Virus record (IMG/VR): IMGVR_UViG_3300045988_181214 | Origin: a virus | Taxonomy: Duplodnaviria > Heunggongvirae > Uroviricota > Caudoviricetes | Length of the DNA stretch: 43,968 nucleotides | Direction: 5' to 3' (one strand) | Part shown: in pieces, positions 161 to 43,478 of the stretch | Numbering within the stretch: the stretch's first letter is position 1 | Layout of the letters: each line of letters opens with the position of its first letter | The notes under the pieces: generated by a model | What the model saw: only the letters and a program-made list of their open reading frames with translations | The model's database searches: none | What the model was told of the DNA's origin: nothing | Position numbers and translations under genes: made by a program

Positions 161-207
161 ATCGGGTAAGAAGTTGGAAACAACATTCTTATCCGATTTT
201 CCGTTTT
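161..207 (+). terminator. Rho-independent terminator downstream of tRNA (phage-supplied copy)
   Basis: 12-bp stem ATCGGGTAAGAA / TTCTTATCCGAT (one G-U pair), 13-nt loop, then TTTTCCGTTTT. Confidence 0.5.
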
Positions 208-274
208 GGGGAGGGACGGAAGCGAAATACTTTATTGTTGAATATCATTGGCTGGCAACGGACAATGAAAAAAA

Positions 275-1438
275 ATGACTGCAAAAGAAATTGATTTTTT
301 GAGCTCGCGTGAAATAGTAGGTTTCACGCTGCCTGTGTTGCATACCAAGGGCGGTTACTGGTATGTTGACTTTACTGCCTTTGACCCTGTTTCGGGTCGG
401 ATGAAGCGCAAGAAATATATGCTTAATAGGTACAAGACTGACCACAAGAAGCGTATGATGGGTACCTTGCTTATCCACAATATCACGGCAAAATTGACCG
501 CTGGATGGAATCCTTGGGTGAATGCCGACAAGTCGAGACAATTCACCGAAATACCAATTATCTTTAGTCGTTATCGTGATTATATTAAGTCGATGACCGA
601 CAAAAAGTCGATGAAGGAAAAGACCTCTATCGACTACCTCAGCCGCCTCAAGACTCTGGAGTCTTTCATCACTGAGTGCAAGAGTGTCAAATATGCCTAT
701 CAGATTGACCGTGCCTTCGCCATCGACTTCTTAGACCACCTGATGTATGACCGTGATGTGAGTGCTACCACAAGAAACAACTATCGCTCTTGGCTTGTCT
801 CCTTCGGCACTTGGCTTATGGATAGAAAATATATCAGCGAGAACCCTGCCATCGACATCAGAAACATCGCTCAGAAGGAGAAGTTCAGAGACCCTTTGAC
901 CGAGGGCGCGCTTAAGAAGCTGAAGACTTATCTCTATGATAACAACAGACATTTTCTCTTGGCTTGCCTCTTTGAATATTATACCTTTATCCGACCGAAT
1001 GAGTTGACGCAGATAAGAATCAAAGATGTGTCGATTGCTGACCAGACGGTCTTTATCAGTTCTGCCATCAGCAAGAACCGTAAGGACGGACTTGTGGCAT
1101 TGAACGATGAAATCTTGAAGCTCATGATAGAGCAGAAGATATTTGAGCATCCGGGACATTGTTTTATCTTTGGCAAGGGGTTGAAGCCTGGTGAGGAGCG
1201 AGCACCTTATAACCAACTGAGAGTAGAGTGGGGCAAGATGCGAGATGCTATTGGGTTTCCGAAGGAGTATCAGTTTTATAGCCTGAAGGACACTGGCATC
1301 AGGGATTTGGCGAACGCACAGGGTATCGTGGTCGCCAAGGATCAGGCACGCCACTCTGATATATCTGTGACGAATCGATATATCAAGAACCAGATGAAAG
1401 TGAACGAGGAGACCAAGCACTTCAAAGGTGGGCTTTAG
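275..1438 (+). CDS. int: Tyrosine recombinase / phage integrase
   Basis: 387-aa ORF next to tRNA-att site; C-terminal ARHSDISVTNRYI matches the box II H-x-x-R ... Y catalytic region of tyrosine recombinases. Confidence 0.85.
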   Translation: MTAKEIDFLSSREIVGFTLPVLHTKGGYWYVDFTAFDPVSGRMKRKKYMLNRYKTDHKKRMMGTLLIHNITAKLTAGWNPWVNADKSRQFTEIPIIFSRYRDYIKSMTDKKSMKEKTSIDYLSRLKTLESFITECKSVKYAYQIDRAFAIDFLDHLMYDRDVSATTRNNYRSWLVSFGTWLMDRKYISENPAIDIRNIAQKEKFRDPLTEGALKKLKTYLYDNNRHFLLACLFEYYTFIRPNELTQIRIKDVSIADQTVFISSAISKNRKDGLVALNDEILKLMIEQKIFEHPGHCFIFGKGLKPGEERAPYNQLRVEWGKMRDAIGFPKEYQFYSLKDTGIRDLANAQGIVVAKDQARHSDISVTNRYIKNQMKVNEETKHFKGGL

Positions 1439-1495
1439 TCTCCTCGATGAGGTGGTGTCGTGGCTTCGCTGGTTTGTGTTTGATGAGTAGCGAAG

Positions 1496-3394
1496 TTACG
1501 ACATCATATAAAAATATCCTGTATAGATAGGCTCAATCTGGTCATCCTTGACCTCCATCTCTATTTTTTCGCATACGAATTTTTTGTTGTGTATGATGTA
1601 TGTGTGAGATGGGTCAGGGATGGTATCAGATTGAAATTTTACCTGAAGGCAGTTTTTGTTGTCTATCTTGAGACCGCTGTCGTGGAGCTCACCCAAACAG
1701 GTTCCTGCTTGCCAAGCCTTGTTTAGGGATAGGGAAGCCATCAGAACGGTTGGAAACGTGCCAATATTGCCAGGATCGAGCAACTCCATCCTATACATGG
1801 AATTGATGCGGCTGTCAGTCATGAACTGCGGCCATCTGGACTTCTCCCCTACCCATGAGACGTTGCCATTGAGTGGGTGTTCGTATTTTTGAACTTTGCC
1901 AGGCACTATGAAAAACACATTCATGCACTCCTGGTCATCCTCGGAATCATCCAAGGTGGACTCATCATCGATGGCATCCTGTATGGAGACGTAGTTGTAG
2001 CCATCCTCGTCTGTGTCGCTCTCTTTGGCTTCGGCTTCTTTGTCGTTTGGCATAGACAGGAGGCAGCGCCATTCGCTGTGTTTACCCTCAAAAAGAAAAG
2101 ACCTAAAGCTAACATTTTCCACGACCTGTGCTGCTGGGGATATGTTGAGGTCTGTGTAATCATCGGAGGAGTTATCCCTTATCAGTGGCGACCAGACACC
2201 AGCCAACTGCCAGCTCTTGTTGCCGTCGGTATCCTCGACATATATATAATAATCGCTGCCCAGATGACGGATGATGGTGGTGCGCTTCTTCTTCTCGGAC
2301 CATCCACTGGTAGTGGCAGGAAACTGAAAGTTGGTACCAACGGCTGTCTCGAACGAATCGACTATATCGAAATTATCAAAAACTTTTTTGGGAATGACTT
2401 CGTAATCACCTCTGTTGGCTGAGTCGCCTAAGTTGTACTGCAGGTTGGCTGTCGATGAGGTTGAGAACGAACCATCGGCATCGTAGTCGGTGGTGTACTC
2501 GTCGAGTGTCTCTATCTCTACGGAGTCGGCGGATGATAGCTCTGAGGACTTGATGACCTGACAAGTCTTTTTGATGTCGTCGAAGTATATGGTGGCGTTG
2601 AAGAGCTTGCGGAACTCCTCGATGAAGGTGTAGCTAGTCCAATGAGGAAGGGCACGGCGAAGCTCTAGGGTCTTGAAGGCGGAGGCGATGTAGAGCAAGT
2701 TCCATGGAGAAACATCGAGGTCGTTGCGTGTGAGGGTGTAGCCCTCGTAGGCGATGACTCGCTTGAAGATGTACATCAGGTTGGGCTGCACGGCGACGTT
2801 GCTGATGTATGGATCTTTGCTGCCTATGAAATTGCCCGTGCGGTCAACGCCCACGAAATTGGCTATCATGTCGTTGGTCTCGTCTCTGACTGGCATGAAG
2901 CACCACTTGCCCTGCTCGCCCAGAAACTTGCTCTGGTCGGCGACGAGCCTATAGACGGATTGAACCTTGGGGATGTTTTTCCAGCCCTGTGAAAAACCTT
3001 TATCTACCGTATAGCCTGGTGCGGATGCCTTGCCGAAGTCTATCTCGTCGATGTAGTGCTTGGTCATCTTGTCGTTGAACTTGATGCGAGACTTGCCGCC
3101 CACTATCTGAAGCTTTATCTCAGAGTCGGTGACGCTGATGATGGTACCCACGCCAGAGAGTACCAGGCGACCGCTCACGTAAAGCTTGCAATCGTTGTAG
3201 GTCTGGGTGGATTTGGAGACATCGAAGCGGCTCACGTTGTGGAAAACTCGGCGGTTGGGCATTATTGCCATGGGGAAATTGATGTCGTAGGAGTATTCGC
3301 CATCGTCGGTGACGTATTGGTTGGCGTATGTGAGCTTGATGGATTGGCTGGCAGCCGGATAGGCTGCCATGCCATTGATGATGCATGTTATCAT
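1496..3394 (-). CDS. Phage tail protein immediately downstream of TMP (distal tail/tip protein candidate)
   Basis: 632-aa ORF, ATG start, 33 nt after TMP stop; position typical of distal tail or tail-tip proteins; acidic segment near C-terminus. Confidence 0.5.
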   Translation of the reverse strand: MITCIINGMAAYPAASQSIKLTYANQYVTDDGEYSYDINFPMAIMPNRRVFHNVSRFDVSKSTQTYNDCKLYVSGRLVLSGVGTIISVTDSEIKLQIVGGKSRIKFNDKMTKHYIDEIDFGKASAPGYTVDKGFSQGWKNIPKVQSVYRLVADQSKFLGEQGKWCFMPVRDETNDMIANFVGVDRTGNFIGSKDPYISNVAVQPNLMYIFKRVIAYEGYTLTRNDLDVSPWNLLYIASAFKTLELRRALPHWTSYTFIEEFRKLFNATIYFDDIKKTCQVIKSSELSSADSVEIETLDEYTTDYDADGSFSTSSTANLQYNLGDSANRGDYEVIPKKVFDNFDIVDSFETAVGTNFQFPATTSGWSEKKKRTTIIRHLGSDYYIYVEDTDGNKSWQLAGVWSPLIRDNSSDDYTDLNISPAAQVVENVSFRSFLFEGKHSEWRCLLSMPNDKEAEAKESDTDEDGYNYVSIQDAIDDESTLDDSEDDQECMNVFFIVPGKVQKYEHPLNGNVSWVGEKSRWPQFMTDSRINSMYRMELLDPGNIGTFPTVLMASLSLNKAWQAGTCLGELHDSGLKIDNKNCLQVKFQSDTIPDPSHTYIIHNKKFVCEKIEMEVKDDQIEPIYTGYFYMMS

Positions 3395-3427
3395 AAACTT
3401 ATCATAAATGAGGTTTGATGAAAACCG

Positions 3428-6400
3428 TTATTTGTTTGACTTCATTTTTTGATATTGGCTCCATTGGCGGTCGAAGCCATCGGGGCCGGTGATGACCACG
3501 TATGACTTGATGCCAGCGTTGAGCTGCTCGTTGAGTCTGTCGATGGTGGTATGCACGCTATCGAGGGATGCGCCCATCTGCTCGGTGTCGCCACCTGAGA
3601 CGTTGACCACTGGGGCGACCACGGCTGCGCTGCCTGTGCCCATGGCACGGCTCACGTCTTGGGCGGTGAGCGAGGCGACCGTGTTGTTGCGCTGCGCCAT
3701 ATCGATGAGCTGCAGGGCAGGGAGGAGCTGAGGATTGTTGACGGCGTTGTGGTTGGCGACGAACTCGCCAGCGTGAACCACGCCAGCCTCTTTCTTGTAA
3801 TTGCCAGGACCAGTGAAACCACCCTCGTAATAGCCAGCCGCCTCTGCCTGGTGCTGCTTTTTGATTGTTGCTATCTGGAGCATGCCCGCTGCGGTGGCGA
3901 GACCTGCGGCGATAGGACCAAGGATGTGACCCACCACTGGGATGGCTGCGGCTGATGAGTAGGCGTTGATGGCAGCCATGGCGGTTGAAGCTATGGCTTG
4001 TGCGATCTCTATCTTCATCGCCTTTTTGTTGGCCTTGCTCTTGGCTGCAGCCACCTCTTTGTCTCGCTTCGCCTCGAGACGCTTTTTCTTGGCTGAGTTG
4101 TTGCCAGCGGCAGAAATCTGCTTATCGTAGTTTTTCTCAATCTTGGCGACCTCTAGGTCTGAGCATGCCTGGGAGTAGGCGGAGGCAGCGCCCATCATCG
4201 TGTTGATGCTGCTGAAGGCAGCGCCAGCGATGGAGGCTATCTCTTGATAGGTCTCTTTGTTCATCTGCTTTTTGGCATCCTGGTATTGCTGCTCGCTGAT
4301 TTTATCCTCGTCTCGAAGATTTTTGAGGTTATCGTTGACCATCTTTTGCTGTTGGATGGCTGCGATGGCACCACCAGCGATTGTGGCGAGGTTGTCGCTG
4401 CCCATGGCATTGTTGCTGTCACCATTGCCCTTGGTCATCTTTTTGGCGGTGTCGAGGGCGGTGTTGGCATCCTCCTTGCGCTGCTCATCGGCGGTTGGCT
4501 TGTATGAGGCGTATTTGTTGGCGATGCCCATCTTTGTGCGCTGGTATTCCTCCTCTCTGATGAGACCTGCCTTGTAGATGGCTTCGAGTCCCTGCAGATC
4601 TAGCTGCATCTGCTCTTCGTTGCCGAGCTTGCCGTATTCTTGGCGCAGCTGAAGGAGTTGCTCGTCGTGCTGCTTCTGAAGGTCGTATTTGCGTTGCTGT
4701 TGGGTCAGCTCTCGCTCTTTCTCGATCTGGGCATACTCGTCAGATGAGGAGAGGTAGAGGGCTTGCTTTTTGTTGAGATAGTCCTGGTATGAGAGGAAGA
4801 GAGCCTCGTTGACGGCATCCTCATTGTGATAGAGGTTGGAGTCTTTGTTGTAGTAATCGGCATTGAGCTTCATTTCTTTTTTCTGTCGCTCGGTCTCCAG
4901 GGCTTCGAGGTCGGCGGTCTGCTTTTTCTCGTAGTCGGCGGCGATATTCTCTTTCTCAGCGTTCAATCGCTTGAACTCTTCGCTCTCTGCCTCGCCATAC
5001 TTTTTGAGGATGTCGAGGCGAGCCTGAAGCCCCTGTTCTTTGATATTCTTCATCTTCTCGTTGTATTCGGCGAGTCGAATCTGACCTGTAGCGTAGAGGG
5101 TCTTGGCATCGAGCTCTTCGGCTTGGTTGGCTTTCTTTGCATCGTCTAGCTCTTTTTTCATGTCAGCCTTGCGCTTAGCCTCTGCCTTGCGAGCGGCAGC
5201 CTCACGTTTCTTTTTCTCCTTTTCGGCAGCTTTGCGCTCTTTCTCGGTCATGGTATGACCAGAGGAAGGGGTGGTGTGTGTCTCTGTAGTTGCGCTATTG
5301 TTTAGTAAATTCTTCTTTACAGTCTTGTTGTACTGTTTCTGCAAATTTACGTTTTTCTCTAATTGCTGATTATAGAAATTCTCTTCAGCATTGACTTGCT
5401 TTTGCAGGCTTAGGTTTGCCTGTAGTCTTTGCGTATGAACTTGCTTTTGCTTCTCGTTACTCTTCAGTGCCTCGTTTTGTTCGATGAGCTGACCTGTCCA
5501 TCCATCAGCCACGGCATTGCTCTCATATTGCTTAGGATGAGCCTTGCGCTCAGCATCGACAGCCTTCAGCGAATATCGTATGCGGCTTTCTTTTTGTTTG
5601 AGTTCCAGTTTCTTTTTATTGATTTCCACCTTGCGCTCATAGATGGCTTCTGCCATGGCAGCATTTTCTAGCTCCTTGATGTAGTTTTGGATGGCAATCT
5701 GGTTGTCGTTATACAACTTGCCCTCTTTGGAGATAGAGGCGTGATATTCTGGGACGAGCTTTATCATATTTGCGATAGCTTGCTTTCGCTCGTCAACGGT
5801 ATAGGCATTGGAGTGGATAACCTTGTTGAGCATATCGACCTTGTTGCGCTCATCGAGGGTAGCATCAGACACCTTTTTGGCGAGGCTGGCTTGAGCCTCT
5901 GCCACTGCTCTGTTGTTTTTAGCCTCTTGCGTGTTGTTGCGCATCGCCTCGTTGTAAGATGTTATGGCTTTGTATGCCCCATAGGCAGCCACGCCCACCA
6001 CGGTGATGACTGTGGCGAGGGCAGCCCATGGATTGGTGAGACTTGCTAGGCGTGCTGCCCTCATCACCACGATGTAGCCCTGTATGCCTTTTGTGAGATA
6101 AGCCCATGTGGCTTGCAGTGCCACTAAGGCAGCACGCAAGAGTGTAGATGTAGCGGTATAAGCTTTATCGACAGCTGAAGCGTATTGTACGGCGGCTGTT
6201 TTAATCTTAATGGCGATGGTCTCCTTGTACCAGAGAGCAGTACAAACAGCGATGGCTGTTGACAGCACGGCTATTTGTTTTGCATAGGTGACGGTGAAGG
6301 TGATGAGCGTGGACATGACCTTTATGGTCAGACTGAATGATGTGATGCCATATTTCATGGCAGGGATGAGTTTTTCTCCGAGTTCGATGGTGAGGTCTTG

Positions 6401-7774: not shown

Positions 7775-7796
7775 AATTGAATATTTTATTTTATGG

Positions 7797-7804
7797 CAAA
7801 GGTA
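7797..7804 (-). promoter_or_regulatory. -7 promoter element (TAccTTTG) for the TMP operon
   Basis: Minus-strand TTACCTTTGCC 23 nt upstream of TMP ATG, just after a terminator hairpin. Confidence 0.45.
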
Positions 7805-7808
7805 ATAA

Positions 7809-7850
7809 GGAGGAAAACATAATAAAAATACGAGACCGTATGTATTGCGG
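7809..7850 (-). terminator. Intrinsic terminator hairpin (13-bp stem) with T-tract
   Basis: AAATACGAGACCG / CGGTCTCGTATTT inverted repeat; on the minus strand followed by TTTTTATTAT; the 20-mer ATAATAAAAATACGAGACCG is repeated at 10321-10340. Confidence 0.55.
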
Positions 7851-10270: not shown

Positions 10271-10297
10271 GGTGAATCTTGTTTTTGTTTTACAGTG

Positions 10298-10305
10298 CAA
10301 AGATA
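10298..10305 (-). promoter_or_regulatory. -7 promoter element (TAtcTTTG) for the lysis cassette
   Basis: Minus-strand TTATCTTTGCACT 28 nt upstream of holin ATG. Confidence 0.45.
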
Positions 10306-10320
10306 AGAAGGGTAGGGTGA

Positions 10321-10358
10321 TAATAAAAATACGAGACCGCCCTAACGATCTCGTATTA
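10321..10358 (-). terminator. Intrinsic terminator hairpin with T-tract
   Basis: Stem ATACGAGA / TCTCGTAT with a 12-nt loop, followed on the minus strand by TTTTTATTAT; shares an identical 20-mer with 7809-7828. Confidence 0.5.
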
Positions 10359-10784: not shown

Positions 10785-12359
10785 TCACGTGAATTTATAG
10801 AACTTCTTTTTGAATTTATTGTGAAGCTCTGCGACCACGGTGGAGAAGGGTAGCTCATCACGACAGAAGTCGTTGAGGGCTTGGTCTATCAAGATCTTGG
10901 AGCCTGTATAGAGGTAGTGCTCCAGAGGTTGCCATACCTCGGTGCCGTCTGGCTCCAGGTGGTCGATGATGCGATAGCGTAGGGAGAGGCGCTTCTTGGG
11001 CACCTCTTTGGTGACCATGTGGGTGGAGCCGTCCGGGGCGGTCTCCTCTTGCTGGATGGTCTCCTTCTCTATCACCGAGTCATCGACCTTGTAGTCTATC
11101 ACTTGAACGAGGAACTTGTTCTCGTCCTGACCCTCACGGCAGATGATGTCCTCGATGGACTGCTGCTGTGATTTCTCCATACCGTCAAAAGGCACGCGCG
11201 CACGGCGAGCCTTGACGAGTTTACCGAATCTTTCCATACCGATTTTCTTATATAAGTTTTTAGAGTTTGCGTGGATGCCCAGACCTAGGCGAGAGGCTGC
11301 CTTGAGCTGTATCTGGCGGTCTGTGAAGCCCGCCTTGCGTAAGTTGGCGATCTGTCTGCAGAGGTCGTGCTTGAACCGCTTGCGCAACAGGGCGTGGTCG
11401 GCGTAGATGATCTGACCGCATAAGTCGATGCCATCGCAGGTGCGGTGGATACCCCAAGACTTATTGATGGATAGGTGCCAGTCACGGGCGAGGTGCATCA
11501 CGGCAAGCTCTGCCATCAGCCTGAGGAACACCTTATCCTCGTGGAGGATGTAGATGTTGTCCATGAAGCGGTAATAATGGCGAAGACCTTGGCGGCAGAA
11601 GCGCTCGAACCTATCGTTGAGCGACTTCACTCCCCCGCATAGCAGTTGAGCTTGCTGCTGAGTGCGACAGGTAACGAGCATGTCGCTCACGTAGCGAGCC
11701 TGCCAGTAACGGAACTTGTCGGTGTCTTGGAGAATGTCGAAGCATCGGAGTGCCAGGTAATCGAAGCGGGCGAGGAAGAGCTGACCCAAGAGTTGGGCGA
11801 GCTTGACGCCGAGCACGATGCCTGGATTGAAGCTATCGACCACCTCGTCGATGAAGGCGAGGAGCTTGCGGTCTTTGATCTTGCGGCGATATTCACTTTT
11901 GAGAAGAGCGTGGTCTATGCTCTGAAAATAATGGTGAATATCCATGGGCAAGCAGTAGAAGGTATCTTGCTGTGGCGAGTTGAAGATGTCTCGCTTGACA
12001 AGATTATAGAAATAATGGGTGCCCTTGCCCTTGGAACCAGCCGGACTGTGGCTGTAGAGTGTCTTGCGAAGGTTATCCTCTACAGGTTGCAGGGCAGCGT
12101 GCTGGATGACGTGGTCGATAACGGGCAGCTTGTTGACTTGGCGATGTTTTGGATAGTCGATATCTTTGGCGACATAGGCTGAGGTATGCCAAGTTTGTTG
12201 GGTGTAAGCATCGAGCATGCGTCCGATGTTATGGTCTAGGTTTGCCTCGAATTTTTGGACCGCACGGCGAGACATCTTTTGTCGGGCGTAGTCATAGAAT
12301 GCCCGACGAAAGTTGTCTAGTGTCTCGACCTGTAGCGATATGTTGCCAAACCTTTTCAT
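10785..12359 (-). CDS. Reverse transcriptase (DGR-type), catalytic motif non-canonical
   Basis: 524 aa from first ATG (track ORF starts at GTG 12428); RT motif 2 SPAGSKGKGTHY, motif A LPMDIHHYFQSIDH, motif B-like GIVLGVKLAQLLGQLFLARFD; sits 208 bp downstream of the template repeat. Confidence 0.8.
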   Translation of the reverse strand: MKRFGNISLQVETLDNFRRAFYDYARQKMSRRAVQKFEANLDHNIGRMLDAYTQQTWHTSAYVAKDIDYPKHRQVNKLPVIDHVIQHAALQPVEDNLRKTLYSHSPAGSKGKGTHYFYNLVKRDIFNSPQQDTFYCLPMDIHHYFQSIDHALLKSEYRRKIKDRKLLAFIDEVVDSFNPGIVLGVKLAQLLGQLFLARFDYLALRCFDILQDTDKFRYWQARYVSDMLVTCRTQQQAQLLCGGVKSLNDRFERFCRQGLRHYYRFMDNIYILHEDKVFLRLMAELAVMHLARDWHLSINKSWGIHRTCDGIDLCGQIIYADHALLRKRFKHDLCRQIANLRKAGFTDRQIQLKAASRLGLGIHANSKNLYKKIGMERFGKLVKARRARVPFDGMEKSQQQSIEDIICREGQDENKFLVQVIDYKVDDSVIEKETIQQEETAPDGSTHMVTKEVPKKRLSLRYRIIDHLEPDGTEVWQPLEHYLYTGSKILIDQALNDFCRDELPFSTVVAELHNKFKKKFYKFT

Positions 12360-12567
12360 AAGCGGTGTAATGTCTGTGTTGAACGGTGTATAAACTGTGT
12401 ATAGTCTGAATCGTCTGCTTTTGTACACTTGATAACCTTCGACCGGATGACCGTGTTGTCATCATCTACCAGCTGTCTTATTAATGTGTATGTATCGCCA
12501 TGGGGCGAGGATTGACCCTGTAATCTCGAAGTGGGAGCAAACGACCCACGAAGAGATATGTCTGTAA

Positions 12568-12689
12568 GTTGAGGGCGGCGCCGTAGTTCACATTGGCATT
12601 CGAGACAGCATTGTTCACGTTGAGCGTTGAAAGACCGCATTGACCACCATTGTTAGCGTTAGCACCACGAAGGCAGACACGAAAACCGG
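12568..12689 (-). repeat. DGR template repeat (TR), noncoding
   Basis: 122 bp matching 12979-13100 at constant offset 411 with no indels; 9 mismatches, all at T on the plus strand (A on the transcribed strand); Asn (AAC)-rich in the target frame. Confidence 0.85.
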
Positions 12690-12723
12690 CACCTAGGGTC
12701 ACACCCTGGTATCATAACCGCCG

Positions 12724-12731
12724 CAAAGGTA
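12724..12731 (-). promoter_or_regulatory. -7 promoter element (TAccTTTG) upstream of TR-RT
   Basis: Minus-strand ATTTTTATTACCTTTGCGG ~35 nt upstream of the TR. Confidence 0.45.
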
Positions 12732-12927
12732 ATAAAAATAATCGGTATGGAAGCATGTCAAAGAGCTTTTTTGATGTTTTTATTGATATTTTTTTTGTCG
12801 CCGACCGCCACAGGCGGTAACTTAAGGCGAGCTACGCTCGCTGGGTGCTTCGGCTTCGCCGAGGGTGCTCAGGTCTCTTTTGCACACCCAGTAAACCGAT
12901 GCACACCCAGCAAACTGATGTAGTCTC

Positions 12928-14400
12928 TTAGGCCGCCTCGTAATACACGGGTTCAACGGACCACTCGGATGCTGCTTCGCAGAGGGCGGCGCCGCAGTTC
13001 ACATAGGCATTCGAGACAGCATTGTTCACGTCGAGCGTAGAAAGACCGCATTGACCACCATCGTAAGCGCTAGCACCACGAAGGCAGACACGAAAACCGG
13101 ATGTAGCACCAGACGTATTCCAGAAATAGCTAGTCCAGTAGGTTGACTCGGATGCGCCCGTAGCGGTCGGGAAGTTCTCTAGATGCTCCATCGAGAGCGT
13201 CTTGATATAGCCTTCGCCCTTGGTCGGCGAGGTGCTGTAAGCCACCATGCCATCGGTGGAACCTATCGTCCACGTGCCGTAGATGGACGGTGCCACGAGA
13301 TGGGTCACGGAAGTGTCCTCGTTGCAACGCACCTGCTCGTCATCCATGTGTCGCCACAATAAGCCGAAGCCATTTTTGTAGCCGAAGAAGGATGGTATCT
13401 TGGCGGTATAGACCACGGTGCCATCGTCTTTTTTGACCTCGTAGCTCGCCTCGCCGCAAGCGTCGCCAAGCTCGATGCCAGCCGACATCGGCACGACAGG
13501 GCGATAGCCGTTGTAACCACCCCAATCAGGCATCTGTGTCACGCCAGCGCCGAGACCACCCTGGTAGAGACCGTTGGCATCTTTTTGGCTGTTGACGGCA
13601 TCCTGGTCGTAGTGGGTGCCGAAGATGACCCCGAAGAGCACGGAGATGGCAGAGGTGTGGCGCATGGTGGTGCAGAGCCAGCCTGTGCCGTTTTTGCGGG
13701 CAGCAGCACGCCAGTATTCGGTAGTCTGGTTGGTGGCAGCCTTGCCCAGCATGGTGCGGTTGGTGTTATCTAACGTGGAGTCGTTGTTGCCGCCTCGGTA
13801 GTTTGTGCCCTCGTTGATGTAGCTCACCAGCTTGCCTGTGCTGCGCTCTAGCGTGGCGAAGCCAGCGGCGGAGATGCTGCCCACAGGTATCTTGTAATTG
13901 TACTCGCCTGGTATCGGCGTAGGGCTGACCATCTCGTAATGGAGTCTGCCCACGGTCTTGATGACCATGTACCACTCCTTGCCCCAGCCCCACTGGTAGT
14001 GCCCCTCTGAGCCATCGAGCTTGGCTGTCTCGCCGGTGGCATACTTGTGGTGGTCTTTGGAGTCGAGCTTGCGACGGGAGTGGTCATTCTTGACCAGATA
14101 ACAGCCCAGACCCAGCTCCGTTGGTAGGGTCTGCAGTAACTCTAGCGAGCCCACATAAGTGGCGGCTTTAGGGGTTGCATTGTCGAGGTTCCACACTCGA
14201 CCACACCAAGGATGCTGTCCCATTTGGACGGCGCTTTTGAGCGACATCTGCTCAGACCTGCCGGATTTTTTGTCGAAGACCTCGACAATCTTGTCAGTGG
14301 CGCTCATGTCTGACTGTGGGAGGTCGTCAACCTGTTGACCTCCATCGAAAGCGGCTATGATAGCCTTGAGCTTACTCTCTTCTTCTGATGTTAATGCCAT
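12928..14400 (-). CDS. DGR target protein: tail-fibre / receptor-binding protein with C-terminal variable region
   Basis: 490 aa from ATG (track ORF extends to 14448); VR occupies the last ~40 codons; lies within the tail-fibre gene block. Confidence 0.75.
   Translation of the reverse strand: MALTSEEESKLKAIIAAFDGGQQVDDLPQSDMSATDKIVEVFDKKSGRSEQMSLKSAVQMGQHPWCGRVWNLDNATPKAATYVGSLELLQTLPTELGLGCYLVKNDHSRRKLDSKDHHKYATGETAKLDGSEGHYQWGWGKEWYMVIKTVGRLHYEMVSPTPIPGEYNYKIPVGSISAAGFATLERSTGKLVSYINEGTNYRGGNNDSTLDNTNRTMLGKAATNQTTEYWRAAARKNGTGWLCTTMRHTSAISVLFGVIFGTHYDQDAVNSQKDANGLYQGGLGAGVTQMPDWGGYNGYRPVVPMSAGIELGDACGEASYEVKKDDGTVVYTAKIPSFFGYKNGFGLLWRHMDDEQVRCNEDTSVTHLVAPSIYGTWTIGSTDGMVAYSTSPTKGEGYIKTLSMEHLENFPTATGASESTYWTSYFWNTSGATSGFRVCLRGASAYDGGQCGLSTLDVNNAVSNAYVNCGAALCEAASEWSVEPVYYEAA
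12979..13100 (-). repeat. DGR variable repeat (VR) at the 3' end of the target gene
   Basis: Encodes the C-terminal ...GFRVCLRGASAYDGGQCGLSTLDVNNAVSNAYVNCGAALC of the target; matches the TR except at template-adenine positions; GC-rich 3' end GCGGCGCCGCCC (IMH-like). Confidence 0.85.
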
Positions 14401-14422
14401 AATAAAAATTATATTTAATCGA

Positions 14423-15187
14423 TTAAACAATGCGTAATTTATCACCAACTTTTCTAAGCTTGCCCGATGCCGACAGGCGAAGGCGAGGCTGGCGCACGGT
14501 GATGCTGACCTCTTGCCAGAGCGGTGTGTTGGCGGTGGGGATGACCCAGAACTTGGTGGTGCCCTCGCCCTTGATGATGAGGTTGCCGCTTGGGTCTGCC
14601 ACGAGCGAGTCGCCCTCGGCTCGCTGGAAGAGCACGCTCTGAGGGAGGTAGCTCGGCAGGATCTGCACGGCGATGCGCAGAGCCACCTTGTTGCGTAGGC
14701 TTATCTCGGGGAGATAGGTCAGGTTCATGCGAGCTGGCGCGATGAAGCCTGTGGTTATCTGAGCGGCGAGACCATCCATCTGCGCTATCTTGGCATCGGC
14801 TCGCTTGGATGCCGCGTCAGCCTCTGCAGCCTTGGTCTCTGCCAAGGCTGCCTGTGATGCTGCAGCCTCGCCCTGCTCGCCAGCCGCCTTGGCTGCGCTC
14901 TGGGCGAGGTTAGCCGCCTTGTTGGCATCGTCGGCCGCACCCTGCGCTCTGACGGTCGGTGTCTTGTCGAGCCACAAGCGCCACTTGGCGTTGGTATCTG
15001 AAGGAGTCGTCGTGTTGCCATCCTCTAGGGAGGCGAAGACTCCTGACGATGTGTGAACGATGTCGCCCTCGTCGTAGCCCTTGACGGTCTGGCCATCCTC
15101 ATCTTGATAGGAGTAGCCCGACTGCCAGGTGCCCTGGTCGGTGAAGGCGACATTGCCCACGATAATGATGTTTGTGTTATCTGCCAT
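14423..15187 (-). CDS. Tail fibre-associated protein (Ala/Gln-rich coiled region)
   Basis: 254-aa ORF, ATG start; central AAKAAGEQGEAAASQAALAETKAAEADAASKRADAKIA repeat-like segment. Confidence 0.5.
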   Translation of the reverse strand: MADNTNIIIVGNVAFTDQGTWQSGYSYQDEDGQTVKGYDEGDIVHTSSGVFASLEDGNTTTPSDTNAKWRLWLDKTPTVRAQGAADDANKAANLAQSAAKAAGEQGEAAASQAALAETKAAEADAASKRADAKIAQMDGLAAQITTGFIAPARMNLTYLPEISLRNKVALRIAVQILPSYLPQSVLFQRAEGDSLVADPSGNLIIKGEGTTKFWVIPTANTPLWQEVSITVRQPRLRLSASGKLRKVGDKLRIV

Positions 15188-20139: not shown

Positions 20140-20155
20140 ATTTTTTATTTTGATG

Positions 20156-20163
20156 CAAAGATA
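20156..20163 (-). promoter_or_regulatory. -7 promoter element (TAtcTTTG)
   Basis: Minus-strand CCTATCTTTGCATC 17 nt upstream of ATG at 20139. Confidence 0.35.
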
Positions 20164-20191
20164 GGTATGATGAGAACTATATAAAAATACG

Positions 20192-25495: not shown

Positions 25496-25518
25496 ATCAA
25501 TGTCTCATTAAAACGATG

Positions 25519-25526
25519 CAAAGATA
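25519..25526 (-). promoter_or_regulatory. -7 promoter element (TAtcTTTG)
   Basis: Minus-strand CCTATCTTTGCATC 24 nt upstream of ATG at 25495. Confidence 0.45.
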
Positions 25527-25540
25527 GGAAGGAAGGGGAG

Positions 25541-25580
25541 AAAATAAAAATACCTGATTGTCATCACGACAACCAGGTAT
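25541..25580 (-). terminator. Intrinsic terminator hairpin with T-tract
   Basis: Stem ATACCTGATTGTC / GACAACCAGGTAT (12 of 13 paired), loop ATCAC, followed on the minus strand by TTTTTATTTT. Confidence 0.5.
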
Positions 25581-38234: not shown

Positions 38235-38254
38235 ATAGCTATGCAATTTTCGTG

Positions 38255-38638: not shown

Positions 38639-38770
38639 AAATAAAAGAAAGGGGTGTGGGGAAAACGATGGCACGGGGCGTGAAGGAGGTTAGAAAAGGC
38701 CCATCGAGACACCCAGGACACCCCCATTGGCCAATGGAGGGGTAGCGAGACGAAACATCGCCCATGGCAA

Positions 38771-38807
38771 CGAAAAAAGGGAGCGACGGCCAATGCGCAT
38801 CGCTCCC
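38771..38807 (-). terminator. Hairpin plus U-tract downstream of the primase gene
   Basis: 8-bp stem GGGAGCGA / TCGCTCCC with 14-nt loop, followed on the minus strand by TTTTTTCG; the nearby perfect palindrome CCATTGGCCAATGG (38724-38737) is part of the same GC-rich block. Confidence 0.4.
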
Positions 38808-38939
38808 TCGTAACATGGGAAAAGAATTATAAATCAGCAAAAATCTGCCTATGAAATCAGCCCTCGTCTGCTTGCAAAAATAGTGAAAAATTGCTTGAAA
38901 ATTTAGCCGAAAATATTTGCATAATTCAGATATTTTTTG

Positions 38940-38947
38940 TACCTTTG
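38940..38947 (+). promoter_or_regulatory. Plus-strand -7 promoter element (TAccTTTG), antisense to the primase 3' end
   Basis: gTACCTTTGCAC, third copy of the 12-mer; no credible plus-strand ORF downstream. Confidence 0.25.
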
Positions 38948-38988
38948 CACTATAACTTGGGGCTATCTATTCTATTATATATGGATGG

Positions 38989-41943
38989 CTAGAAAGGTTT
39001 ATCACTATCTTTATCTACCTTGCTCCAGTCAATGGTAGATTGATATTCACCCCCAGCTGCAGGGACATCAGCCTTGGCAGCTTGTTTATCCTCTTTTTTA
39101 TCATCACTCTTCTTGCTTCGGAGATAGATCATCTCGACAGGGCTGCCGTCTGGGTTAGCTGGATCGCGTCTGATGATGCGGTGCTGGCTGTTGCAGAGAT
39201 CAGCTGGGTTCAGCTCTTGGATGTATGGACACAGCTCGACGAAGGCTCTGAGCTTTTTGGTGAAGCTCTGTGTGGTCGCCTTGTTGATGCCTGAGAACTG
39301 CTTGAAGTCATTGAACGCACGCTCTCTCACGATAAATGTATCGAGTCGCTCGCTCTCTTCTGAGAAGTAGGATGCAGCCCAGTCTTCGAAGTTGACACCC
39401 ATGTCGGCCTTGAACTTGCGCTTGATGATGTTATCCATCGGTGGCATGATCTTGATAGGTTCGCCAGCCAAGGAGAGATAGAAACGACAGCACTGCAGGA
39501 AAAAGTTGATGTCAGCATTCCACTCATCCTCAGTGTATGTCTTTGAGAAGAGATCTTCGTCGAAGTCATCACGGATGCTTCGGGTCTCTTGGTAATCATT
39601 CTCCTCTGTGCGCTGATGGTAATAGTCGGAGAACACCATATAGAGCAGTCTCGCCTCTGAGGAAGGGTCGAAGTCTGCCGGCACGTAGTTGGTGGTGAAG
39701 GCAATCTTCGGGCTATCCTCGAAAGGAATTGTGAAGCTCTGGTTGTTCTTTGGGTTGACTGTCATATCTGAAGTAATGTTATCGTAAAATAAACCTGTGT
39801 TGAGATAGCGGTCACAGTCATCGAGGAGCAGCATCTGGGTGTGCTGTGTCACCTGATCGAAGACGTGTGGGTTGTCCATCAGCTTAGGGTTGCGTCCGGA
39901 AAGCTTGACTGTTTTCATCAGCAGTGAAAGCGTCTTGAAGAAGAAACTCTTACCGGAACGGCCGTTGCACTCGTTGTTTTCACCAATCTTGTTGTCCATC
40001 GCCATCGGAGCCCAAGCCCTGGATGGTGCCTTGTAATGATGGAGCATGTAGCCGAAGGTGAAAATCTTGTTTATCAAGTTCTGCTTTTGCTCTTGTATCT
40101 CGTTGTCGGCAAGCCCTTCGCCAGCGATGTCGAAGAGGTGTGCCTTGTGGTATGCCTCTTTCTCCTCGATGCTCTTGTCCTCAAAAGCATACTCTAGCTC
40201 TTTGCGCCAGTAGGTGCGAGAGGCGTTGATGAGATAGCCGAAGAAGTGGGACTTCACGTTCTTGACCTCGATGTCGAACTTCGGCCTGCCATCCTCGTCG
40301 ATGGTTCGTGTGATGGAGAACATGTCATCCAACTTCTTGAAGTTGTGGTTGATGACATTCTCTTGCCAAACATAGTTTTTGAGCGAGCTGCCCTCACGCT
40401 GGTACTCGTTTAGTCCATCTTTGGTGACCTCGACGCTGACACGAGGGAAGAAGAACAACTGCGAGTGGTTGGTGTAGCTGGTGAAGTCTAGCGTAATCTC
40501 TTGGAGCGAGTCGAGCGCCGATGCCGACAGCTTTGGCGTGTTGAGCACCAAGTTAAGGATGTCACGCTTCTCAGCTCTCTCGATGACCCATTGGCGGCAG
40601 AACTCACGGATGTCTCTCGTGGTGATGAGCTTGACGATGTTGCCCGTGATGCGAACATATTTGGTGATGGTCGAGTTGTCATCGTGCAAGGTATAGAAAC
40701 CATTGAGACGAAGAAAATTGTAGAGGCACGCCGTGTCGATGTAGTGGTCCCAGGTGTTAGCCTTTTTGTTGAGCTTGCTCACCCAAAATCGGGCTGGCAT
40801 CGCCAGTGTCATGAGGTTGCGGAAGTCTTTGCGAGTATTGCGCAGCTCCATCCAGTCTCGCAGGTCTTTGCGCCCCTTGCCACGGTTGTCGTGGTAGGTG
40901 CGAAGCCAAGAAGGCAACCATATCGTATGGATGTCGATGAAGCGCAGGGCAAGCTCTGTGCCCTTGGCGATGCCCGTCTCGTCGATGTCGGGTATATTGT
41001 AGAGCACCTCGACATACTTCATAATCTCTCGGTACTCCTCGTCGCTGAGCTTGTAGGTCTCGGAGTTGAACCATAACGGGTTGTAGCCCATGGAACGGCA
41101 GCAGAGACTGTCACGCTCGCCACTGCAGATGAAAGCCTCGGGAAGTTTCTTCTCCTTGTAAGGCTTGGACTCGTCTGTGTTGGTCTTGTTGTACTCAGCC
41201 TCTTCACGGCGGTTGAACTCGTGATAGGCAGCCTTCAGCTCAGCTAGGCCATTGATGTATTGCTTAGGCTTGATGCCGTCTGGGGTGTAAGAGAATCGCC
41301 ACTGCTTTTGGTAGTTGAGAGGCTCATATATCTTGTAGAACTTAACCTCAGGCTTGTCGCCTTCAGCTGGGCGAACCAAGCACTCACGCATAAAGATAGG
41401 GTAGTGCTCGTTGCTGTGCTTAATCTTGACCTTGCGGTCTTTGACGTATCCTATCCACTTGGCGGAATGCCAGTTGAGTGCATCGACGTGCTCTTGCTTG
41501 ACGTTTGGACCCAGTACCTTCAGTTCATCCTCGGTGAACTTCTCGTTCAGCTCGAAAGGTCTGGTACCATCTTTCTCGTTGATGGTGGCATCACGCTCTG
41601 TGAATGTAGGCTTGTTGACCTCTTTTTTGAGTTCATCGCTAACGTTGTATTCGGAAGCCAGTCTCAGGATGGCATCAGGAAAGCGGTCGATGCACTTCTC
41701 TCTCATGTAGAGGTCGATAGGTGACTCGGCAGAGCCGTCGCCGCCGAAGTCAGTCACTCGCCAGCAGTCTTTGAACTTTTTGAGACTGCAGGAAGGTGTT
41801 TTCTCATTGCGGATGGCAAAGTGCTTTTTAGGCGTGCCAGTCGTGCAATATTTCTGGACGCATTCTTTTGCGTCCGGGTATAGTGAGATGATGATGTCGA
41901 GACCATCATCTGTAGCTTGATAAATTTGTTCTGCTTTGATCAT
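38989..41943 (-). CDS. DNA primase / SF3-type helicase (replication initiator)
   Basis: 984 aa from ATG 41943 (track starts at TTG 41973); C-terminal half has Walker A NGRSGKSFF and Walker B MLLLDDCD; Cys-rich N-terminal region. Confidence 0.7.
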   Translation of the reverse strand: MIKAEQIYQATDDGLDIIISLYPDAKECVQKYCTTGTPKKHFAIRNEKTPSCSLKKFKDCWRVTDFGGDGSAESPIDLYMREKCIDRFPDAILRLASEYNVSDELKKEVNKPTFTERDATINEKDGTRPFELNEKFTEDELKVLGPNVKQEHVDALNWHSAKWIGYVKDRKVKIKHSNEHYPIFMRECLVRPAEGDKPEVKFYKIYEPLNYQKQWRFSYTPDGIKPKQYINGLAELKAAYHEFNRREEAEYNKTNTDESKPYKEKKLPEAFICSGERDSLCCRSMGYNPLWFNSETYKLSDEEYREIMKYVEVLYNIPDIDETGIAKGTELALRFIDIHTIWLPSWLRTYHDNRGKGRKDLRDWMELRNTRKDFRNLMTLAMPARFWVSKLNKKANTWDHYIDTACLYNFLRLNGFYTLHDDNSTITKYVRITGNIVKLITTRDIREFCRQWVIERAEKRDILNLVLNTPKLSASALDSLQEITLDFTSYTNHSQLFFFPRVSVEVTKDGLNEYQREGSSLKNYVWQENVINHNFKKLDDMFSITRTIDEDGRPKFDIEVKNVKSHFFGYLINASRTYWRKELEYAFEDKSIEEKEAYHKAHLFDIAGEGLADNEIQEQKQNLINKIFTFGYMLHHYKAPSRAWAPMAMDNKIGENNECNGRSGKSFFFKTLSLLMKTVKLSGRNPKLMDNPHVFDQVTQHTQMLLLDDCDRYLNTGLFYDNITSDMTVNPKNNQSFTIPFEDSPKIAFTTNYVPADFDPSSEARLLYMVFSDYYHQRTEENDYQETRSIRDDFDEDLFSKTYTEDEWNADINFFLQCCRFYLSLAGEPIKIMPPMDNIIKRKFKADMGVNFEDWAASYFSEESERLDTFIVRERAFNDFKQFSGINKATTQSFTKKLRAFVELCPYIQELNPADLCNSQHRIIRRDPANPDGSPVEMIYLRSKKSDDKKEDKQAAKADVPAAGGEYQSTIDWSKVDKDSDKPF

Positions 41944-41970
41944 AATTCTTTTCCATTGTAAATTTTCTTG

Positions 41971-41978
41971 CAAAATTA
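41971..41978 (-). promoter_or_regulatory. -7 promoter element (TAatTTTG) for the primase
   Basis: Minus-strand AATAATTTTGCAAG 28 nt upstream of ATG 41943. Confidence 0.4.
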
Positions 41979-42111
41979 TTGCAAAGCGAGTTCAAAACAA
42001 AATACTTATTTTTTGTCGCATAGAGCCTTTGGCTCATACTCGACGTATCTGTGGAGAGGGTGGCAGTATCTGCCATTGATGCAGTTGCTGCCATCCTCGC
42101 ACTTTTGGCAT

Positions 42112-42423
42112 TTAATCGGTGGCATCGACTTTTATATCAAAAGTGTCGTTGTGTAGCAACATCTTGGTATGAACATAAATTGGTTTTTGTTCATCCTCAT
42201 CCCATCCAACCTCTCGGAAGTCTCTGCCATCGATATAGCATTCGGTGGCGTATCCTTTGTCGGTCCACTCTACGATATGGTCTTTGTCGAACTCGTCTCT
42301 TGCTGGCACTGTAGCCAGAACACGAGTGCCAAACTTGCTGTAGCTAATCTCGTGTATAGTGACGTTAGGGTATTTCTCGATGATTGCCTCCTCGATAGAT
42401 TTTGTCTTAGTCTTCTTTTTCAT
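42112..42423 (-). CDS. Hypothetical early protein
   Basis: 103-aa ORF, ATG start. Confidence 0.45.
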   Translation of the reverse strand: MKKKTKTKSIEEAIIEKYPNVTIHEISYSKFGTRVLATVPARDEFDKDHIVEWTDKGYATECYIDGRDFREVGWDEDEQKPIYVHTKMLLHNDTFDIKVDATD

Positions 42424-42613
42424 TGTTCTTCATTCTGAATTTAACAATACCTGCCACGATGCCGTCTTCTTGGTCATCGTAGAACATATTTAAATCTGTT
42501 GTGCCCTTATGGAGTGTACCATAGGACACGTCAACGGCAACGCTGGCATCCTCGAAATCTTTGAGGATGGCTTGAAGCTGTTTGCTGTTGCATCTGACTG
42601 TCATTTTTCCCAT
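42407..42613 (-). CDS. Hypothetical early protein
   Basis: 68-aa ORF, ATG start, overlaps neighbours. Confidence 0.4.
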   Translation of the reverse strand: MGKMTVRCNSKQLQAILKDFEDASVAVDVSYGTLHKGTTDLNMFYDDQEDGIVAGIVKFRMKNNEKED

Positions 42614-42819
42614 GATCCATCATTGATAATTTGCTCGATGACCTCTCTGTCGATGGCACGCCAAGTATTGGTGCGCATCTTATTGTAGATGGTGTTCTGG
42701 CTCATCTCTAGCTTTAGCTGCAGTGTGGCCATGAACTTGCTTCTCTTTTTGCGTGGTATCTCATTATACCATGCGAGGATGATATTTTCATCATCATTTT
42801 TTTTGTTTTTTTCTTGCAT
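42601..42819 (-). CDS. Small DNA-binding protein (Cro/excisionase-like), first gene of the leftward early operon
   Basis: 72 aa; HTH-like ATLQLKLEMSQNTIYNKMRTNTW; transcribed divergently from the repressor. Confidence 0.5.
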   Translation of the reverse strand: MQEKNKKNDDENIILAWYNEIPRKKRSKFMATLQLKLEMSQNTIYNKMRTNTWRAIDREVIEQIINDGSWEK

Positions 42820-42836
42820 ATTCCAATATTTATTAT

Positions 42837-42855
42837 TAATTTTGTTGCAAAGTTA
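42837..42855. promoter_or_regulatory. Face-to-face divergent promoter elements in a near-palindrome (lysogeny switch region)
   Basis: TAATTTTG-ttg-CAAAGTTA: plus-strand TAatTTTG (42837-42844) and minus-strand TAacTTTG (complement of 42848-42855). Confidence 0.4.
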
Positions 42856-42940
42856 GTAATAAAAATCGGAAAATACTAACGAAAGTAAGTAAAAACACCT
42901 ATGATAATAGGTTAAATATTATTAATTAAATTAGGTAATT

Positions 42941-43318
42941 ATGTTTAATGGTCAGATAATCAGAAAGTTAATGTCGGATGCTGGCTTAACTAAAAAAGAG
43001 TTTGAAAGACGTATGTTCGGTAGTAAATCGACCGACCTCAACCATTTGGAAAAAGCGAAGAATCTTCGCAGTGACACTCTCGAACGTCTGCGTGAGGTGT
43101 TGAAGTGCTCTATGGATGACTTCTTTACAGCACCCTCATGGGCTGAGAACGGAAAGGGGACAGTCGTAGGCTCTAACAATGTGCTGTCAACAGTAGCCAT
43201 CGGCAACGAAGTGATGGAAGCCCAATATCTCAAGGAGTTGCTCTTGGAGAAGGACAAACGCATCAGCACTTTGGAAAATTATATCAAGCTTCTGGAGACT
43301 AACTTAAATAAGGACTAA
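42941..43318 (+). CDS. XRE-family helix-turn-helix repressor (CI-like)
   Basis: 125 aa; N-terminal HTH IIRKLMSDAGLTKKEFERRMFGSKSTDLNHLE; C-terminal coiled-coil; divergent from the early operon and next to attR. Confidence 0.65.
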   Translation: MFNGQIIRKLMSDAGLTKKEFERRMFGSKSTDLNHLEKAKNLRSDTLERLREVLKCSMDDFFTAPSWAENGKGTVVGSNNVLSTVAIGNEVMEAQYLKELLLEKDKRISTLENYIKLLETNLNKD

Positions 43319-43407
43319 TACGAAACATAATTCGTAAGATGAATCCTTATATATAATAAGGTGTATAAAATATATCGTATAATCTCAGCAGTGATATCCA
43401 ACTCGTT

Positions 43408-43424
43408 AGTCTTGCCGCCGCAAC
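43408..43424 (+). repeat. attR core (direct repeat of the tRNA 3' segment)
   Basis: AGTCTTGCCGCCGCAAC identical to 140-156. Confidence 0.75.
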
Positions 43425-43431
43425 AATGCAA

Positions 43432-43478
43432 ATCGGGTAGAAAGTTGTAATTCAACATTCTATCCGATTCTTTTTTTA
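43432..43478 (+). terminator. Host copy of the tRNA terminator, displaced to attR
   Basis: 11-bp stem ATCGGGTAGAA / TTCTATCCGAT followed by TCTTTTTTTAT. Confidence 0.5.

Follow-up and report, generated by a model that had tools for sequence, protein, structure and literature searches.

A temperate phage at the initiator tRNA gene of Segatella copri carries a near copy of a putative terminator hairpin of sister host lineages

By sequence comparison, the hairpin that the phage carries next to the initiator tRNA gene is an approximately base-for-base copy of the native tRNA-fMet putative terminator found in sister lineages of the S. copri complex. The window analyzed here, a stretch of 43,968 nt (IMG/VR record IMGVR_UViG_3300045988_181214), likely represents a Segatella copri chromosome with a 43-kb temperate siphophage, whose tyrosine integrase used the 3′ end of the gene for initiator tRNA-Met as its insertion site. 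This identification belongs to one explanation that we consider likely as a whole: a replacement segment in the attachment site, a hairpin of sister-lineage type, and predicted termination and insulation. The apparent mimicry of the host by the phage is explained as an identity block extending through the terminator, in a host whose terminator has since diverged.

An intact tRNA-fMet gene was found at attL (positions 83–158, + strand; ARAGORN, and an Rfam tRNA match of 60 bits), and its C1:A72 position was unpaired, as is usual in initiator tRNAs. The 17-bp identity block AGTCTTGCCGCCGCAAC, which runs from T-loop base 58 to C74, was located at 140–156 (+) and repeated exactly at 43,408–43,424 (+), where the attR copy is the displaced 3′ fragment of the host tRNA gene. 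The intact tRNA gene was thus present only at the left end, and the right end held the 3′ fragment. Bases 83–139 came from the host, while the last two bases of CCA (157–158) came from the phage, whose spacer CAAT (157–160, +) completes the encoded CCA together with C156. This phage spacer was highly variable among related phages (TAAT, AATG, TCAT, TACA, AACA and TATT). The host spacer at the other junction was AATGCAA (43,425–43,431, +; CATGCAA in S. copri HDD05), and the distance from core to hairpin was 4 nt in attP versus 7 nt in the attB of this host. The crossover was bounded to the 17-bp block at 140–156 and no more narrowly; polymorphic tRNA base 62, used as a crossover marker, gave conflicting hints, as the attR base tracked the host in two P-arm lineages and was always C in a third. 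All of the forms attB, attP, attL and attR were found among relatives. Joints resembling attP (P arm, core and P′ arm) were seen in relatives only (L014/L109, L045/L123 and L080); the attP of the window's own phage was not seen, and its P arm recurred at attR in L068.

The prophage body (157–43,407, about 43.25 kb, unstranded) was missing from the empty site of HDD05. It encoded a tape measure protein, a tail protein, a reverse transcriptase and a weak terminase match, with all genes on the − strand except the integrase gene. The tyrosine integrase gene (275–1438, +, in the same direction as the tRNA gene) adjoined one junction and was identified by Pfam PF00589 and PF02899, the former with 45.2 bits against a cut-off of 27.1, as well as by a PHROG integrase match (E 5.6e-31). 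The host flank was marked by a gene for a TetR-family regulator (43,589–43,968, +; Pfam TetR_N), which is cut by the window end and was syntenic in all lineages examined. The phage family is widespread and temperate in the S. copri complex and carries a diversity-generating retroelement. No relative of the integrase region was found in the GenBank phage collection, where the matches covered the tRNA part, except for one 94-nt match at the start of MT835698.1. Furthermore, no description of Segatella phages using this tRNA-fMet site was found in the literature searched.

Each copy of the core was followed, a few bases to its 3′ side, by a hairpin of 37 nt. The phage-borne hairpin of the P′ arm (161–197, +; −20.1 kcal/mol) had a 12-bp lower stem including one G·U pair, a bulged A185, a 4-bp upper stem and a GAAA loop. 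The native putative terminator hairpin of the host tRNA-fMet gene, now at the far end of the prophage (43,432–43,468, +; −19.8 kcal/mol), had an 11-bp lower stem (12 bp with an extra A43431–T43469 pair), a 1 × 1 A·A internal loop, a 4-bp upper stem and a 5-nt loop. The left halves (ATCGGG..GTTG) were 16 nt in each. The stems were A/U-rich, with 5 G–C pairs of 16. The fold z-scores were −5.8 for the phage hairpin and −7.3 for the host hairpin, and no shuffled sequence folded as well. The earlier note on this DNA had quoted the arms of both hairpins, which are present as given, and had put their identity at about 85%; re-alignment gave 84–85%, compared with a background of 45–49% both before the core and past the hairpin. 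The pattern ATCGGGTA-N18-26-TATCCGAT occurred exactly twice in the window, at the two hairpins and both times on the + strand, and in none of 100 shuffles, and chance similarity was therefore rejected. The phage hairpin was followed by a TTTT tract and then a second stem-loop, UUUUCCGUUU/GGGACGGAAG (together 198–222, +), and the CCGTTTT and GGAC blocks there were conserved among relatives. The host hairpin was followed by the T tract TCTTTTTTT (43,469–43,477, +), read directly in the sequence.

The difference between the hairpins had been described as one A missing from the left arm and the complementary T missing from the right arm, with pairing preserved. Pairing was indeed preserved: in the folds and the family alignment, changes in one arm were matched by changes in the other. 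The extra A (168/169) paired in the phage fold with the extra T (190/189), so the indels were not at unpaired positions. However, this description was not unique, since there were 32 co-optimal alignments. In an alternative one, the left arm carried a GA-to-AG substitution, and the net change was one extra T in the phage right arm with a loop shorter by one base. In related sequences, the constant difference between the host type and the phage type was a G–C pair shifted by one step, from GA/TC to AG/CT, which the ungapped alignment resolved as two adjacent compensatory pair changes on both sides. On the strength of the 32 co-optimal alignments and the ungapped family alignment, the paired indel was rejected as the sole description. 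The extra T and shorter loop of the window variant are a separate change among phage copies.

The empty site of S. copri HDD05 (locus L009) was identical to the left flank of the window (positions 1–158) at 158 of 158 positions and matched the right flank at 99.1% over 561 bp. At this site the right-hand hairpin adjoined an intact tRNA gene; it is native there, and the left-hand hairpin is consequently phage DNA. The native host hairpin was likewise found beside an intact tRNA gene at the second empty site, L005, and at L220 and L242 (loop variant), the hairpin at L009 being identical. The query of the genome scan was a T-type 22-mer, with HDD05 as its only match; a Y at tRNA position 62 would also catch sister species, whose empty sites were taken from the metagenome scan. 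A comparison with uninfected relatives thus had a divided outcome, with the right-hand type native in HDD05 and the left-hand type native in sister Segatella lineages.

A hairpin of the TAAGAAG type was present upstream of the integrase gene in 40 of 40 full-length integrase relatives examined (42 loci found), a raw count from sampling drawn mostly from one metagenome (3300045988) and uncorrected for phylogeny. These integrases were 86–100% identical in amino-acid sequence, and the hairpin lay about 75–110 nt upstream of the gene. The same type was native at the syntenic empty site L055, where the flanks were 81–82% identical to HDD05, the TetR gene lay downstream and there was no integrase. 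It was the commonest form of empty site in gut metagenomes and also occurred at the attR junctions L086, L093, L102, L105 and L134. Between phage L017 and native L055 there was a 61-bp stretch of complete identity, which started at the tRNA 3′ end and took in the entire hairpin. No hairpin of the S. copri sensu stricto type was found on any of the elements examined. Because the phage hairpin is native in sister lineages, the difference seen in the window is a divergence between host lineages, which probably took place on the S. copri sensu stricto branch. The earlier proposal of a functional mimic rather than random flanking DNA was right in that the DNA after attL is a homologue of the hairpin downstream of the host tRNA-fMet gene. 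The phage did not, however, evolve it as a mimic of this host's terminator, for many sister lineages, L055 and L146 among them, have it as their own native hairpin where the tRNA-fMet site is empty.

Several native lineages (L055, L155 and L153, and partly L196 and L170) had stems of the AAGAAGTT type combined with differing spacers and tails, and this wider spread among lineages is what suggests transfer from host to phage rather than from phage to host. In the opposite scenario, the TAAGAAG type was originally a phage sequence that stayed behind in sister hosts when deletion or recombination beyond the hairpin removed the prophages, so that elements drive terminator turnover. Native terminators at this syntenic site were non-homologous between lineages with flanks 77–85% identical, an unusually fast turnover, and its location coincided exactly with an attachment site that several phage lineages share, as this scenario would predict. 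However, site-specific excision restores the host B′ arm, the variety of spacers and tails around AAGAAGTT-type stems fits vertical descent, and no remnant core copies were found in the 330 nt after the tRNA gene at the empty sites examined. We therefore regard transfer from phage to host as very unlikely.

The stem was retained in all element-borne copies, in at least 24 variants, often through G–U wobble changes. Among 15 distinct 37-nt hairpins, 225 of 225 cells paired, compared with 28–49% with slid partners. Pairs 9–29 and 10–28 were changed on both sides and three pairs varied by wobble; both double changes traced to one lineage split, which leaves few independent events. Seven of the eight kinds of stem substitution kept pairing, mostly as G·U on the + strand, and the spacer and loop varied freely. 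Retention of the stem in element-borne copies suggests that selection acts on the tRNA-sense RNA, as judged from these substitution patterns. The hairpin could instead be a functionless, neutral relic of recently captured host DNA, for example after aberrant excision from a sister lineage, with its conservation reflecting short time. The 61-bp identity to a native site, the modest overall divergence among phage leaders, and the fact that double-sided changes were confined to two pairs, both of which set one host lineage apart from all others, are all compatible with such a relic. We nevertheless find it quite improbable, because the hairpin was kept across at least four downstream contexts and integrases down to 86% identity while the adjacent 4-nt spacer, the loop and the mid-leader varied freely, and because most stem substitutions spared the pairing. 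Moreover, an unrelated element at the same tRNA gene (L072 and L244) carried a different strong hairpin with a T-rich tail at the same place.

The hairpin might also be a recombination site acting at the DNA level, in which the integrase or some accessory protein binds the palindrome and the homology of attP and attB is kept for recombination, not for an RNA function. The hairpin lies at most about 60 bp from the crossover, a region in which one would look for arm or core-type sites. Its conservation equals that of the integrase-proximal leader, and further conserved blocks in the vicinity (CCGTTTT ... AAAACGG) are possible arm sites. However, the core-to-hairpin spacing is not shared between attP and the attB of this host, and the same phage family was integrated in hosts with unrelated native hairpins, at attR in L099, L107 and L120 (ATGGTAAGAAGTTTTCTTCTTACCAT) and in L059 and L088 (GGAAGTGATTAATTAATCACTTCC). 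In addition, the stem contains a G·U pair, and it varied by transitions compatible with G·U on the + strand only; read from the opposite strand, or as duplex DNA, they would be mismatches or of no consequence. These three observations led us to reject the hairpin as part of the integrase core site, and a role as a DNA-level recombination site appears highly unlikely.

Every native lineage examined had a hairpin followed by at least six T at this place, even where the hairpin sequence was unrelated. Native copies had 6–8 T, clearly so in the host tract, compared with a weak run of four T, CCG and four more T after the phage copy. Both segments folded into strong hairpins of about −20 kcal/mol, and a consensus terminator scan called neither of them because the bulge or internal loop breaks the scanner's contiguous-stem rule. 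We judged this null result to be a limit of that rule and not evidence against a terminator.

In the explanation that we prefer, the phage attachment site carries a replacement segment in which the final 17 nt of the tRNA gene are followed by a short spacer and then by the 37-nt hairpin. On integration, the tRNA gene at attL would come to end in phage DNA followed by the phage hairpin, and the host's own hairpin would be moved 43 kb away to attR. In sister hosts the identity block between phage and host reaches about 61 bp and spans the entire hairpin. The native hairpin of S. copri sensu stricto would have diverged by the G–C shift and loop changes, leaving 17 bp exact and giving two hairpins that look compensated. 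The phage copy may stop or attenuate transcription from the strong tRNA promoter, and such termination would give the tRNA a defined 3′ trailer and prevent read-through into the co-oriented integrase gene.

A comparable arrangement has been described for ICEKp1 at tRNA-Asn in Klebsiella pneumoniae, where stem-loops between the tRNA and integrase genes attenuate tRNA-integrase transcripts (PMC13023037). In both elements the integrase gene follows directly 3′ of the tRNA gene in the same direction, element-borne stem-loops separate the two genes, and the native tRNA terminator has ended up on the opposite side of the element; the attenuation was described for ICEKp1. The stem-loops of ICEKp1 were not reported to be copies of a host terminator, whereas the first stem-loop of the Segatella phage is a homologue of a native one. 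By analogy, the phage-borne copy could be a tuned attenuator and not just a passive patch for the gene: its short T tract, together with the second stem-loop, would allow a fixed share of transcripts from the tRNA-fMet promoter through to the integrase gene in the integrated state only, as in ICEKp1. We hold this unlikely when taken jointly with its companion proposal that elements drive the rapid replacement of native terminators among S. copri-complex species.

Carrying a terminator-like hairpin copy of its own is an ordinary and already known way for a phage to repair the gene that it interrupts. The Williams laboratory described identity blocks at tRNA, icd and fis targets that include replacement sequence and can extend into the rho-independent terminator (PMC10111431). 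As in those systems, the target of the tyrosine integrase is the 3′ portion of a gene, which stays intact because attP supplies a substitute for the displaced end, and the block runs into the putative terminator, to 61 bp here in sister hosts. The window differs in that the downstream block of its host has decayed to 84–85% identity by divergence of the host lineage, with 17 bp exact left. Mycobacteriophage Ms6 and similar phages that use the T-loop or 3′ end of a tRNA gene (PMC1762012) also rebuild the gene at one junction, although Ms6 infects another host phylum, uses tRNA-Ala and has an integrase of a probably unrelated lineage. The 17 bp are all the exact identity shared with attB in this host, and yet the phage integrated. 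The practical value is modest: attB, attP, attL and attR are defined for a widespread temperate phage family of the S. copri complex, and the hairpins form a small natural series of terminator variants for studies of termination or integrase control in Bacteroidota.

The initiator tRNA-Met gene was found at 83-158 on the + strand (ARAGORN; Rfam tRNA match of 60 bits, with the C1:A72 non-pair typical of initiators), and a tyrosine integrase gene was encoded on the same strand at 275-1438 (PF00589, PF02899, PHROG integrase). Beyond the integrase gene, phage genes occupied about 42 kb and were mostly encoded on the - strand; they included genes for a tape measure protein, a tail protein and a reverse transcriptase, and a weak match to terminase. 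The 17-bp core, AGTCTTGCCGCCGCAAC, was present as an exact repeat at 140-156, where it covers T-loop to C74 of the tRNA gene, and at 43408-43424, and a TetR-family gene (Pfam) started at 43589. Inside the core, tRNA position 62 was polymorphic, being T in Segatella copri sensu stricto and C elsewhere. The T-stem pair 52:62 (134 and 144) was a pyrimidine-pyrimidine non-pair: the window has U.U, and sister lineages (relatives in loci L010-L051) have U.C or C.C.

The reverse transcriptase gene (10785-12428; PHROG reverse transcriptase, E 2e-52) was part of a diversity-generating retroelement at 10785-14448 on the - strand. Its template repeat was located at 12571-12689 and its variable repeat at 12982-13100, in the 3' end of the tail-protein gene (12928-14448), and all differences between the repeats (7/7) were at A in the template. 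An intergenic motif of TGCAAAGATA, an A/G-rich stretch and ATAAAAATACG recurred at 7781-7847, 10282-10348, 20140-20191 and 25517-25569; its reverse complement contains TATCTTTG, which matches the Bacteroidota -7 promoter motif TAnnTTTG. Since the motif lies on the strand of the phage genes, its copies may be phage promoters.

Two similar hairpins follow the core copies, as the earlier note had reported. The pattern ATCGGGTA-N18-26-TATCCGAT matched only 161-197 (left) and 43432-43468 (right) in the window and none of 100 shuffles. Both hairpins were 37 nt long with a left half of 16 nt, and folded singly at -20.1 (left) and -19.8 (right) kcal/mol, with no shuffle equally stable. Their identity was 84-85%, with an ambiguous alignment (32 co-optimal solutions). 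In the 60 nt before the core and the 100 nt after the hairpin, identity fell to the background level of 45-49%.

The sole match to the tRNA 22-mer in a genome scan was S. copri HDD05, in which the site is empty. The HDD05 site was identical to the window over 1-158 (158/158) and 99.1% identical over 561 bp for 43408-43968, and locus L005 was a second empty site. In HDD05 the right-hand hairpin directly follows the intact tRNA; this comparison identifies the right hairpin as native to the host and the left hairpin as the P' arm of the phage. The native gene in HDD05 has an encoded CCA (GCAACCATG), the native genes of the window's host (43424-43426) and L005 have none (GCAACAATG), and the phage copy in the window brings one (156-158, GCAACCAAT). 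Most related phages supply no encoded CCA (spacers TAAT, AATG and TCAT).

The phage hairpin folds as a 12-bp stem with a bulged A and a GAAA loop, and the host hairpin as an 11-12-bp stem with an A.A internal loop and a 5-nt loop. The arm strings quoted in the earlier note were correct, and the extra A and extra T that it placed at paired positions are partners in the phage fold, so that observation stands. In an ungapped alignment of 15 distinct 37-nt hairpins, standard pairs filled 225/225 pair cells, compared with 28-49% when the partners were slid. Both partners were altered in pairs 9-29 and 10-28 (A-U to G-C, and G-C to A-U), and these changes set the sensu stricto type apart from all others. 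From this alignment, the constant difference is thus a G-C pair shifted by one position in the stem, which amounts to compensatory substitution of two neighbouring pairs. The window's variant differed from the commonest phage and native form by one T added in the right arm and one loop base lost, so that an A-U pair and a bulge replace the A.A internal loop.

The phage-type hairpin was also native in other hosts. At the empty syntenic site of L055, the order was tRNA, hairpin ATCGGGTAAGAAGTTGGTCAACAACATCTTATCCGAT, seven T, the TetR promoter region and the TetR gene. The L055 flanks were 81-82% identical to HDD05, which places L055 in another species of the complex around S. copri. The L055-type native junction was the commonest empty-site form among the gut-metagenome matches and also occurred at attR of L086, L093, L102, L105 and L134. 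Phage L017 matched native L055 over 61 bp (core 17, spacer 4, hairpin 37 and TTT); therefore the att identity block spans the whole terminator hairpin in those hosts. Divergence of the native hairpin in sensu stricto has left an exact match of only 17 bp, and no element in the sample carried the sensu stricto-type hairpin. The proposal that the phage carries a mimic of the host terminator thus holds for a homologous terminator copy and fails for a phage-evolved mimic, because the same hairpin is native in sister lineages. On these alignments, the compensated difference in the window is divergence between host lineages. Stems of the AAGAAGTT type are native in L055, L155 and L153 and shortened or altered in L196 and L170; because several native lineages have them, the sensu stricto form is probably derived.

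The integrases of 42 viral contigs were 86-100% identical to that of the window, and in 40/40 contigs with the full-length gene a TAAGAAG-type hairpin (the phage type) preceded the integrase start codon by about 75-110 nt. The attP forms, with P arm, core, P' hairpin and integrase gene, were found in L014/L109 and L045/L123, and the window's own P arm was seen again at the attR junction of L068. Because several distinct P arms share this one core, the site serves more than one phage lineage. At least four P arms were distinguished (attR junctions of L002, L004/L006, L061, L066, L068 and L134; window 43383-43407), some bearing an imperfect inverted core copy (GGCGGTAG / GCGGCAGGA). Position 62 in attR tracked the host in two P-arm lineages and was constantly C in a third, a pattern that, as read from these junctions, is not simply explained by a single fixed crossover. 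Positions 1-94 of GenBank MT835698.1, a 34-kb "Bacteriophage sp." sequence of human faecal origin, matched the tRNA 3' part and phage hairpin (107-200) at 92.6% over 94 nt; the record is probably a related prophage-derived contig.

The element-borne hairpins comprised at least 24 distinct sequences, folding at -15.5 to -21.8 kcal/mol. Stem substitutions A1>G, C3>T, G6>A, T32>C, C22>T, C25>T and A24>G kept pairing, mostly via G.U on the + strand, while G16>A opened the loop-closing pair. Free variation was seen in the 4-nt spacer, in the loop and in the central part of the integrase leader. Every native lineage at the syntenic site had a hairpin followed by at least six T, including those with unrelated hairpin sequences, and an unrelated element at the same tRNA (L072, L244) carried a different hairpin with a T-rich tail. 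The retained stems, the free spacer and loop variation and the universal hairpin with T therefore speak for an RNA element that resembles a terminator and forms on the tRNA-sense strand. The hairpin could instead have been a DNA recombination site, and this is argued against: G.U wobble is meaningless in duplex DNA, core and hairpin are separated by 4 nt in attP and by 7 nt in the attB of this host, and the phage family is also integrated in hosts with an unrelated native hairpin.

Species of the S. copri complex with flanks 77-85% identical had several non-homologous terminator hairpins at this one site. The loci compared were the syntenic tRNA-fMet/TetR loci L009, L055, L155, L170, L174, L194 and L196, and L194 had about 116 nt of extra sequence after the hairpin. 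Across the compared loci, terminator turnover is fast exactly at the phage attachment hot spot.

The aligned junctions show that the phage integrated at the tRNA 3' end, that phage DNA took the place of the gene end and of the hairpin behind it, and that the native terminator was moved to attR. The phage hairpin would end or attenuate transcription from the tRNA promoter, and either effect would insulate the integrase gene, which is co-oriented with the tRNA gene, and safeguard initiator tRNA maturation. A simple terminator scanner called neither hairpin. The phage T tract is short (TTTT CCG TTTT) and able to pair into a second predicted stem-loop (198-222), and a third overlaps the integrase start; some transcription may therefore continue past the hairpin, as has been reported for ICEKp1 (PMC13023037). 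In the integrase leader (198-275), the blocks CCGTTTT, GGAC, AATATCATTG and AACGGACAATGAAAAAAAATG were conserved among relatives, and a stem-loop (TCATTG..CAATGA) was predicted immediately before the integrase start; arm-type sites or elements of translational control are possible roles for these features.

Att identity blocks with replacement sequence can extend into a rho-independent terminator (PMC10111431), as the block of this family does in sister hosts. As in the classical integration of Ms6, with its core in the tRNA T-loop (PMC1762012), the core here starts in the T-loop. ICEKp1 has a displaced tRNA terminator and element-borne stem-loops upstream of the integrase gene (PMC13023037), and the window phage likewise displaces the tRNA terminator and has stem-loops before its integrase gene. 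No description of these Segatella phages was found in the papers searched. The tRNA-integrating, terminator-carrying mode is already known, and the Segatella case adds another example.
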